Source: a virus
Taxonomy: Duplodnaviria; Heunggongvirae; Uroviricota; Caudoviricetes
Reading direction: 5' to 3' (one strand)
IMG/VR virus record: IMGVR_UViG_2537561709_000011
DNA length: 8,832 nt
Below, in pieces: positions 6,001-8,832 of this stretch (position 1 is its first letter; each line of letters opens with the position of its first letter). Position numbers: made by a program.

Positions 6001-8832
6001 GGCGGATATTGGGGGTTCAGGTATGGCGATGTTTTCCCCGCAGTACAACATCGAGATCAATAACGATGGCACGAACGGGCAGATAGGTCCGGCTGCCCTG
6101 AAGGCGGTTTATGACCTCGGGAAAAAAGCGGCAGCGGACTTTATGCAACAGCAGGCCCGTGATGGTGGTCGGTTAAGTGGAGCATATCGGTAATGGAGAC
6201 GTTTCACTGGAAAGTGCGCCCGGATATGAATGTGTATGAGCGTCGTGAGGGCGCTGGTGATGGTGTTCGTCGAAAGGTGGCGCGTTATGGCCTGCCTGGT
6301 CATTCTGTTGTGGTGCGTGACGGTGAGGGCCGGAACGGTGCAATTGACGGCGAATGTATACGCATCAATGCTACAGATGTGGTGCTGGTGGAGGGGCAAT
6401 AAAAAACCCTGAAAGATTTCTCCGGGTGCTCCAGTTGCACGTGGCAGAAATCCTTCAGGGTCAGCCGTAACGGGCCTCTGTACAGAGGGCTCCAGTTGCC
6501 CAGAGATGAGCACCCGCTACAGCCTGTTGTGATAAGCCGCTTTACAGTGAGCTCCAGTTGCTCAAAGAGGCGCGTTTTTATCACAACCTGACCGCGATAA
6601 CCCGCTGTACAGAGGGCTTCAATTGCCCAAAGAGGCGCATTCTTATCGCGGCATGACGAAATCACCGTGATGTTTTCGTCGTTCACTCATCCCGATGTGT
6701 GGGAGATGCACCGGAATGAGTGCCGAAAAGCCGCTGGCTGGCTTCATGCAGTCGGACTCAGTTGCCCGGGGCGAACACCATCAACGGCCTTTTGGTGGTG
6801 ATTATAGCGAATCGCGATAATTGAGCAAATACGGTGATGAGATGCGTATCACGGTAGCGCTAAATCGTCGCCTGCATCACTGAAGCTGTAATTTCTCCAT
6901 TCATCCTGCGGATTAATCCCCATCTCTTTCAGCGTTCTGTCTGCGGCCTTTTTCACATCGCCAAAGGTGACGAACTGCTCAGGCATACGACGGGTTTTAC
7001 TGATGCATATCGCCCGACGTCTGGCAGCTTCCTCGCGTTCACTGTCCGTTTCTGCGTGAAGAAGAACCTCAGCCCATCGGGTCGCCGCACGTCGCCATAA
7101 ACCGCGCTCCTCAAGTTTCTGTGCCACGCTGTCCGTCATCACTGGCTTTACCTCCGGCTGATTACTGCTGACTGTTTTTCTGCTTCATCTGCTCCAGTCT
7201 CCGCTTCAGTAGTTCGCTGGCTACTGATTTATCTTCTTCCGTGACTTCACCGCAAGGTTGCCCGTTCAGTCCATACCGTGCGCCGCCAGCGACAATGGCT
7301 TTCAGGTATCGCGTCGTGTGGATGTATGAGGTTAATGCGCCACGTAATACGCCATGACCAATCGCCAGTTCCCGCGCCTTCGCGTCCTGCAACATATCGT
7401 GTATCACGCCAGCCTTAAGGGGTTTTATATTCTCTGCCCCAAACAGTTCAGGCCAGTACTCAGCCAGTCGGTTTATCCTCCTGCGGTTTTTTCGCTGCCG
7501 CTTTGTCATGTGCTGCCACGGTATGCGCCGTGATGGTTTACGTGTGGTCTGGTCCTGTTGTGTGGTCTGCTGGTTCATGTTGTGCTCCTGTCATTCAGAA
7601 CGGAATATCGTCAGAGAACGGGTCATCACCTCCCGCTGGTGGCTGATTCCCCCGTGTTCCGGTCTGTCGTTTTGCTCTTTCCAGTGCTTCGGTCGCCTTC
7701 CCCTGTTGCCCCCGCTTCCCGCCAGGACGCGCCGAACGGGCACTGATTACGCTGTCAGCGATAACCTGCCAGCCCTGCCGTATTTCTCCGTTCTGTCCGG
7801 TCCACTGACTGATCTGCATGTTACCCGCCACGCTGATAAGGTCGCCTTTTTCATGTCTCGCCAGCGCGTCGGCCTGCTTACCAAATGCCAGGACTGATAG
7901 CCATAACGTCGCCTGTCCGTCCTGTGCCTGACTGCATGGCAAAGATACCGCCATACGCGCCAGCGTCATCGGTGTGCCCTTGCTGGTCTGTTTTACCTGC
8001 GGGTCGTCCACCAGCCGTCCGTAAGCTGCAATCTGTGCTGTCATGGTCTGCGCTCCTTGTTCCGGTACTCTTGGATAATACCCATTGTCATATCGAATAA
8101 ATCACAACGCCGAATTACAGTTTTCTCGGGTACAGCGGCACGATGAAAGTGACGCCCGATCGCATCACGGACTACAAAGCACCATCGGCAGAAGAGGCTG
8201 CCGTCGCCAGCCAGGCCGCGAAGCGTCCGCCGGTAGTCAACTATCCGGGGGAAGGTTTCCGGGAAATGACAAAGGCACAGTGGGCCGCCCTGCCCCGGGA
8301 CTGTAAGGCCGTGCGCAGTGTGGCAGAAGCAGAAGACCACGGGGCATACCGCTACCGCCGCACAATGGACAATAATTTCCGTCTGGTGAATGTGTATATC
8401 ACCGACATGAAAATTACGGAAATCCCACAGAAATAAGGTATATCCCCCCGGGAAATCCCCGGGGGATGACGGAGATAATGACATGCACAGTCAGTTAAAA
8501 GAACGTATCCGGCTGATGCGCGCAAGGCTGGATAACGCCGCGCCGGTTGCTGAAATCCGGGCTGAATCTCAGCTTTTTGTGACTCCTGCCCCGGTCTGTG
8601 ATCGCCTGGTGACGCTGGCGGAGATCAGCAACCGTGATCACATTCTGGAACCCTCTGCCGGCACCGGGGCCATACTGCGGGCGATTCGGGATACCGCACC
8701 GGAGGCCATGTGTGATGCGGTGGAAATCAACAGCGGGCTGGTCCGGTATCTGCGGGAAAATTTTAACGGTGTCAGGGTTCAGTGTGGCGACTTCATGGAA
8801 TGGCAGCCGGTGCAGTATTACAGCCGGGTTAT

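Follow-up and report, generated by a model that had tools for sequence, protein, structure and literature searches.

The 8,832-nt viral sequence IMGVR_UViG_2537561709_000011 (the window, meaning this whole stretch) carries on its minus strand, at 6849-7142, a small gene of the PerC/Pch family of transcriptional regulators. That the gene belongs to this family and comes from a phage satellite is, in our assessment, close to certain. The explanation that best fits the data as a whole, and that we regard as fairly probable, is that it is a satellite-borne paralogue of the PchE type acting as an indirect, pleiotropic modulator of transcription, and that the window in which it was found is chimeric. 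The gene itself is already known: thousands of public assemblies label the identical protein a PerC-family regulator. An initial reading of the sequence (the original prediction) had placed here a PerC/Pch activator, on a phage-associated element, with possible cross-talk to host virulence genes such as those in the enterocyte effacement locus (LEE).

A PerC-family gene at 6849-7142

The gene and its translation signal are as follows.
6849..7142, minus strand: PerC-family (PF06069) gene, 97 aa, TGA stop at 6849-6851; identified by open reading frame (ORF), Pfam, PHROG and an identical annotated gene
7151..7155, minus strand: GGAGG ribosome-binding site, read from the sequence and placed 8 nt (GTG) and 11 nt (ATG) upstream of the two start codons

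The minus-strand frame is unbroken from a GTG at 7142, with an ATG directly next to it at 7139, down to the stop codon, and the coordinates originally proposed describe an uninterrupted reading frame. The product has 97 aa if translated from the GTG and 96 aa from the ATG. The short motif on which the family assignment had rested, GLWRRAATRW, is present as residues 14-23 of the 97-aa form. In a profile search, the Pfam PerC model (PF06069) matched the 97-aa protein with E=2.7e-29 and 101.7 bits, against a gathering cut-off of 22.6 bits, and the match spanned protein residues 1-86 and model positions 1-88 of 90; the assignment to the PerC/Pch family, which a failed profile search would have overturned, is thereby confirmed. 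The protein also matched phrog_994 (E=6.9e-28) and several smaller PHROGs described as 'transcriptional activator'. All 11 invariant columns of a 66-sequence family alignment are kept (A6, L9, E10, G13, R16, R17, A18, R21, W22, R35 and C45), and a nine-sequence alignment placed in the protein the signature A..LE..G..RRA..RW ... R ... C of PerC and PchA-E. The 96-aa form is identical to RefSeq WP_000132491.1, a 'PerC family transcriptional regulator' whose sequence accounts for 3822 blocks in a public gene-position index.

The GTG is favoured as the start codon because of the spacing of the GGAGG, because homologues begin at the GTG-equivalent codon (MIADSVAQ...) and because diverged island variants of this perC are annotated at 294 nt. 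Judged from these signals, the true start is probably the GTG at 7142, and the RefSeq start at the ATG would be 3 nt short.

The carrier island and the make-up of the scaffold

In complete genomes the gene is the last of a primase-orf-ssb-proQ/finO-perC cluster within an island carrying an integrase, alpA and primase. The native island measures ~16 kb and is inserted between yicC and dinD, as in O103:H2 12009 and O157:H7 Rafaela_II. Its genes run in the order integrase, hypothetical gene, AlpA-type helix-turn-helix (HTH) gene, AntA/AntB antirepressor, ash/icd-like remnants with small orfs, D5_N/Pox_D5 primase, 149-aa orf, the gene for a single-stranded DNA-binding protein (SSB), ProQ/FinO, PerC (the window gene), a convergent 128-aa orf, one or two more genes of the PerC family, YeeE/YedE transporter and Q antiterminator. 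In one O157:H7 genome (locus L015) the right-hand module of this island recurs at the cspD/clpS site, where the integrase and AlpA preceding it are different ones.

Marker profiles characteristic of phage-inducible chromosomal islands (PICIs) were recovered in the order Phage_integrase, AlpA (25.2 bits, cut-off 21) and primase (D5_N/DUF5906/Pox_D5), which is the canonical integrase-AlpA-primase order of these elements. The island likewise has the size (~10-16 kb) and dedicated insertion site expected of a PICI and is free of structural and lysis genes, capsid, tail and lysis genes not being annotated in it. Judged by gene set and order, the true carrier is thus a PICI-type phage satellite, similar to EcCIMP1, a PICI that has been characterised by experiment (PMC11773190). 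The proQ-perC pair was found in 116 of 5,426 complete E. coli genomes, always on the chromosome and mostly in Shiga toxin-producing E. coli (STEC), and the main serotypes carrying the island were O157:H7, O111:H8, O103:H2 and O145:H28. PerC variants are recurrent among E. coli PICIs (PMC6092414); the association of PerC homologues with PICIs is already published, and nothing about the window gene is categorically new. Outside the window, the O103:H2 12009 island (L001) holds two more PerC-family ORFs at 19238-19709, of 100 aa and 55 aa, which are called as one 153-aa product in some genomes, giving three PerC paralogues in a single satellite.

The window corresponds to scaffold KB004216.1 of draft assembly GCA_000316725.2 over its full 8,832 bp. 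BLAST searches against phages, plasmids and the 5,426 complete E. coli genomes divided it into three unrelated pieces (1-6237, 6221-8106 and 8102-8832), and no record in these collections covered 80% or more of it. Base-level comparison set the boundaries as listed here.
1..6233, plus strand: head-tail joining and tail genes of a lambdoid prophage, up to and including the tape measure gene, followed by 14 codons from the start of a gene M homologue; 100% identity to O157:H7 prophages; context, outside the element
6228..8106: segment of the PICI-type satellite island, chromosomal; its sequence is the same in O103:H2 12009 and in numerous genomes of O157:H7, O111 and other STEC
8102..8832, plus strand: F-like/pO157 leading-region fragment in which a DUF3560 gene is represented by its 3' part and an S-adenosylmethionine (SAM)-dependent methyltransferase gene by its start; context, outside the element
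6228..6233: junction 1, from the prophage gene M homologue (about codon 14) to the satellite island, with microhomology AATGTG (6 bp)
8102..8106: junction 2, from the satellite island to the pO157-type leading region, with microhomology TCACA (5 bp)
6193..6402, plus strand: mechanical ORF of 69 aa, an in-frame fusion in which 14 codons from the start of the gene M homologue are followed by 55 codons from the end of the 128-aa island gene; an artefact of junction 1

The plasmid piece (8102-8832) is 100% identical to pO157 Sakai 45343-46073. Four genes are broken at the joins: the gene M homologue and the 128-aa island gene at junction 1, and the island gene upstream of ssb and the DUF3560 gene at junction 2. 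Among random blunt joins of the same sequences, an overlap of at least 6 nt arose at junction 1 with P=0.0017, and the overlap at junction 2 had P=0.0052; as overlaps that long are improbable at random blunt joins, the joins were taken to be microhomology-mediated and not simple concatenations. 40-mers across junctions 1 and 2 had zero matches in IMG/VR, JGI metagenomes and GTDB genomes. The source assembly annotates the fusion ORF at 6193-6402 as a gene, the product of which is on record for one contig in one sample only. A second mechanical ORF, at 8041..8484 on the minus strand, was rejected as a gene: it spans junction 2, which makes it an artefact, and its product is without any record.

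Most economically, the window is read as a chimera that likely arose in the assembly or the library of a draft O157:H7-like genome. The less economical alternative is a real microhomology-mediated rearrangement. Under either account, the adjacent tail genes and plasmid genes are unrelated to the PerC gene. The proposed 'phage-associated element' is accordingly right in one sense, as the carrier is a phage satellite, and wrong in another, as the gene is no part of the adjoining tail-gene prophage, to which it is linked only by a junction unique to one scaffold. Inferences drawn from its neighbourhood in the window, such as 'regulator on a tailed prophage', would be wrong.

Relationship to PchE and function

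We compared the window protein with PchA, PchD and PchE of O157:H7 Sakai, PerC of pMAR2 from enteropathogenic E. coli (EPEC) and EcCIMP1_025 of strain MP1. Identity to the window protein, isoelectric point (pI) and net charge were as follows.
Window protein: pI 5.9 (5.86), net charge -1
PchE: 51% identity over 84 aa, pI 5.7, net charge -2
PchD: 44% identity, pI 8.5, net charge +2
EPEC PerC: 41% identity, pI 9.8 (9.78), net charge +9
PchA: 40% identity over 84 aa, pI 10.3 (10.33), net charge +13

A neighbour-joining tree of 123 family members placed the window protein in a clade of its own, of ~20 sequences, with PchE as the nearest reference. PchE (ECs1588, a group 3 Pch) is, like the window protein, acidic and a Pfam PerC member, and both share the block FGD[LV][KR]KA.DRT..EMGI...WRNY. 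Its gene also occupies the same slot, directly downstream of a very similar satellite SSB gene in a primase-orf-ssb-perC cluster of an int/alpA/primase island: the order in Sakai Sp7 is primase, ECs1586, SSB (ECs1587), pchE and then capsid genes. By proximity to PchE and position after ssb, the window gene thus conforms to group 3. Sp7 is also CP-933C and O-island 51 (PMC3378721), and its size and gene content suggest that it is the capsid-forming PICI EcCIEDL933. The differences are as clear: the two proteins lie in separate clades, a ProQ/FinO gene stands between ssb and perC only in the window island and not in Sp7, and the window protein has a longer acidic tail (SFSDAGDDLALP). Moreover, the PchE island lies at the roxA/phoQ site and has a capsid module, whereas the window's island lies at yicC or cspD/clpS and has none. 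At 51% identity the window protein is not an orthologue of PchE and, as far as sequence can tell, resembles it without being PchE itself. One more pch gene of O157, the sixth, has been mentioned under the name 'pchX' (PMC3378721); we could not trace it to any sequence, and the window gene may be what was so named.

PchA/B/C and EPEC PerC share with the window protein the Pfam family, the A..LE..G..RRA..RW motif, R35 and C45, and they too are borne on horizontally acquired elements. They differ in being very basic, against a net charge of -1, and in showing only 40-41% identity. They also differ in location: pchA lies beside the lysis genes of a lambdoid prophage and perC in the perABC operon of the EPEC adherence factor (EAF) plasmid, whereas the window gene sits in a satellite replication module. 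Group 1 Pch proteins are assigned by DNA similarity, size and functionality (PMC6265319). The window protein departs from that group in similarity to PchA (40%), length (97 aa, compared with 104 aa) and tree position (a separate clade), and it lacks the strongly basic charge that our own comparison identified as a mark of the group and that would fit an action on DNA/H-NS complexes. EcCIMP1_025 is another PICI-borne PerC protein, and its element, EcCIMP1 of E. coli MP1, shares the left-hand gene set of the window's island, from int through HTH/AlpA, AntA antirepressor, ash and icd to primase. It is, however, more distant in BLOSUM-distance neighbour lists and basic (pI 9.6), its gene lies away from the primase beyond DNA-ejection-type genes, and it represses a LEE1-lux fusion in C. 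rodentium (PMC11773190).

Published work shows that effects on LEE1 are not universal in the PerC family (PMC6265319, PMC11773190). Group 1 Pch proteins (A/B/C) activate LEE1 by relieving silencing by H-NS/StpA/Hha/YdgT, with displacement of H-NS (PMC4764244), while PchD and PchE have little effect on the LEE (PMC6265319). PchE instead represses csgD and curli and raises flagellar gene expression (PMC6265319, PMC7369912), and pchE is transcribed in a polycistronic ECs1586-ECs1587-pchE RNA (PMC7369912). LEE1 fusions did not respond to the PerC-like genes of EcCIEDL933 and EcCICFT073, and the authors who found repression of LEE1 by EcCIMP1_025 propose an ANR-like mode (PMC11773190), ANR being the family of AraC negative regulators such as Aar. 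O157:H7-like strains, the inferred host lineage, belong to the attaching-and-effacing (LEE-carrying) pathotype (PMC7369912).

The predicted structure and the sequence of the protein bear on such an ANR-like mode. An AlphaFold2 model built on the 66-sequence alignment had a mean predicted local distance difference test (pLDDT) score of 77.6, rising to ~90 over residues 11-50, with helices at 4-12, 15-28, 32-49 and 59-72 followed by a disordered acidic tail. The predicted fold is a four-helix bundle resembling tetratricopeptide repeats (TPR), of a protein-binding type. No solved structure related by sequence to the window protein was found. The ANR model (NCBIfam NF033650), which has 54 positions, aligns through its positions 9-53 with residues 7-51 of the protein at 19.8 bits and E=5e-4, and the same model matches 46 of the 66 PerC-family members at E<0.01. 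From these alignments, the N-terminal half of the PerC family is very probably homologous to the ANR anti-activators. Both are small helical proteins that align over the N-terminal region; the window protein differs in being ~40 residues longer, with a PerC-specific C-terminal helix.

On this basis we propose, by analogy and tentatively, a mechanism that we consider possible rather than probable. perC would be made together with the satellite ssb and proQ, as pchE is with its ssb (the ECs1586-ssb-pchE transcript). The protein would be a small helical adaptor that changes transcription indirectly, and not a classical sequence-specific DNA-binding activator. Its partners, in the manner of ANR proteins, may be other regulators or nucleoid proteins, such as H-NS/StpA-type complexes or AraC-type activators. 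We would expect the protein to modulate, pleiotropically, surface and virulence genes under H-NS control (curli/csgD, flagella and possibly the LEE, in either direction), without strong activation of LEE1. A role in cross-talk with the host is plausible.

Several points weigh against this account. An identity of 51% to PchE is too low for a safe transfer of function. The ANR match, at 19.8 bits, lies below the curated cut-off of 32 for membership. Group 1 Pch acts on DNA-H-NS complexes, as seen by chromatin immunoprecipitation (ChIP) and in vitro reconstitution, and direct contact of the family with DNA is therefore possible (PMC4764244). The carrier strains are overwhelmingly of LEE-positive pathotypes, as a LEE-directed function would also predict. 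Lastly, the co-transcription of ssb, proQ and perC was deduced from gene spacing and the pchE precedent, and promoter and terminator consensus scans of 6200-8200 gave nothing above shuffled expectation.

The first alternative is that the protein is a LEE1/ler activator equivalent to PchA/B/C or EPEC PerC, displacing H-NS at the LEE1 promoter and switching on type III secretion. Membership of the same Pfam family with all invariant residues and an island found mainly in LEE-type pathotypes (O157:H7, O111:H8, O103:H2 and O145:H28) would agree with it, and some PICI-encoded PerC homologues are said to activate the LEE in a passage of PMC6092414 that cites Porter 2005. Set against these are an identity of 40-41% only to PchA and PerC, a pI of 5.9 compared with net charges of +9 to +13 among the activators, a nearest characterised relative, PchE, with little LEE effect (PMC6265319), and the PICI-borne homologues that leave LEE1-lacZ unaffected (EcCIEDL933 and EcCICFT073) or repress LEE1 (EcCIMP1_025; PMC11773190). 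Sequence comparison makes a LEE1 activator role unlikely, and we rate full equivalence to these activators as quite improbable. Of the original prediction, the family assignment survives and LEE activation becomes unlikely, given the little LEE effect of its nearest relative PchE, its acidic charge and the repression by EcCIMP1_025. The label 'PerC family transcriptional activator' invites the assumption of LEE activation, against which the sequence features of the ProQ/SSB-linked, yicC-integrated subgroup argue.

A strict ANR-type anti-activator, which would bind and inhibit an activator of the AraC/XylS family (PerA-, GadX- or Psr-like) and repress virulence or acid-resistance genes, is in our view very improbable. 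It draws on the end-to-end alignment of the N-terminal 45 residues with the ANR model and the matches of 46 of 66 family members, on one family member (P0107) that NCBI names as ANR family, on the predicted helical, protein-binding type of fold and on the ANR-like mode that its authors propose for repression of LEE1 by EcCIMP1_025 (PMC11773190). It is opposed by the shortfall of 19.8 bits against 32, by ~40 residues beyond the ANR model that include a PerC-specific fourth helix and an MGI motif, by a Pfam assignment that is unambiguously PerC and by the lack of an AraC-family gene adjoining perC in the island.

Neighbouring genes and the repeat array

The satellite segment of the window holds the following features besides perC.
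7162..7578, minus strand: ProQ/FinO-domain gene, 138 aa, co-directional with perC and separated from it by a 19-nt gap (PF04352, E=7.4e-26)
7595..8044, minus strand: satellite-type SSB gene, 149 aa, with the canonical acidic tip ...DDIPF at its end, co-directional, with a 16-nt gap to proQ (SSB profiles)
8041..8106, minus strand: 3' remnant (~22 codons) of the conserved 149-aa hypothetical gene WP_000136564.1, which natively precedes ssb (mapping to L001 21819-22268)
6228..6400, plus strand: 3' part of the conserved 128-aa hypothetical gene WP_001241339.1, natively convergent with perC (mapping to the native island)
6420..6665, no strand: iteron-like array between the convergent genes, 3' of perC (repeat analysis)

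The ProQ gene sits between ssb and perC, and the proQ-perC pair is carried by 116 of the 116 complete genomes that match the 730-bp stretch. In diverged variants, the annotated ProQ reading frame runs across the perC start. The window SSB is, by eye, very similar over the N-terminal oligonucleotide/oligosaccharide-binding (OB) fold region to ECs1587, which precedes pchE in Sp7, and an ssb-perC pair occurs again in a third island lineage, at the same roxA/phoQ site as Sp7 (locus L018). These comparisons suggest an ssb-perC module shared among different PICI lineages. The native upstream region and promoter of the cluster are absent from the window because junction 2 cuts the WP_000136564.1 gene.

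The array consists of three units of 62-65 bp (6475-6536, 6537-6601 and 6602-6665) and a partial core at 6428-6440. Its core is GCTCCAGTTGCyCArAGAG, with the palindrome CCkCTGTACAGAGGG (CTGTACAG) upstream of it. Even where the flanking proQ-perC genes of an island variant drop to 82% identity, the array is ~95% conserved, and beyond the array divergence is complete. We infer that 6420-6665 is a candidate satellite origin or regulator-binding array. TRF did not call this repeat array, and Rfam families gave zero matches anywhere in the window. A mechanical ORF at 6300..6686 on the minus strand was rejected as a gene, as it overlaps the plus-strand gene remnant and the non-coding array, whose 62/65-bp periods are not multiples of 3; its PHROG match covers only 28 aa, and RefSeq genomes carry no annotation there.

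These surroundings bear on the main rival to the PchE-type modulator, namely that perC is a satellite life-cycle gene that regulates the satellite's downstream genes, its origin region or its interaction with a helper phage, perhaps with ProQ/FinO or the repeat array. At least three lineages of islands (that of the window, Sp7/OI-51 and the L018 island at the roxA site) have a PerC gene behind ssb, and in two of them it directly precedes the capsid/packaging module; islands hold up to three PerC paralogues; and the conserved iteron-like array lies directly 3' of perC. The family also occurs in Salmonella, Klebsiella, Enterobacter, Citrobacter, Pantoea and Serratia, genera for most of which a LEE is not known to be a usual feature. 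Against such a role, no experiment ties any PerC homologue to PICI induction, replication or packaging, and the master regulator described for Gram-negative PICIs is AlpA (PMC6092414, PMC11773190). PerC presence is, moreover, variable among EcCIMP1-like elements (PMC11773190), and a dispensable, variable gene is more typical of accessory cargo. We consider the satellite role unlikely.

A broader version, which we hold to be unlikely, is that PerC-type proteins are core components of Gram-negative satellites and not virulence cargo, with perC, ProQ/FinO and the 62-65-bp array forming one unit for satellite replication, late expression or helper interference. Were this true, the effects of some homologues on the LEE, curli and flagella would be by-products of an activity, anti-silencing or anti-activator, that had evolved to serve the satellite itself. 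The repeat array and the ProQ/FinO gene beside perC provide handles on whether PerC proteins serve the satellite. For the window gene itself, the PchE-type modulator is the account we retain.

One further match concerns the use of plasmid collections. The L018 island was found in CP061267.1 (PLSDB plasmid pSTEC1024_3, 171 kb), where roxA and phoPQ flank a PICI with AlpA, SSB, PerC and capsid genes. A plasmid-borne SSB-PerC module (H98, CP061267.1) was rejected, the sequence being in reality a chromosomal roxA...phoPQ fragment with another PICI. The record looks like a mislabelled chromosomal fragment, and matches to the module in plasmid collections need care.

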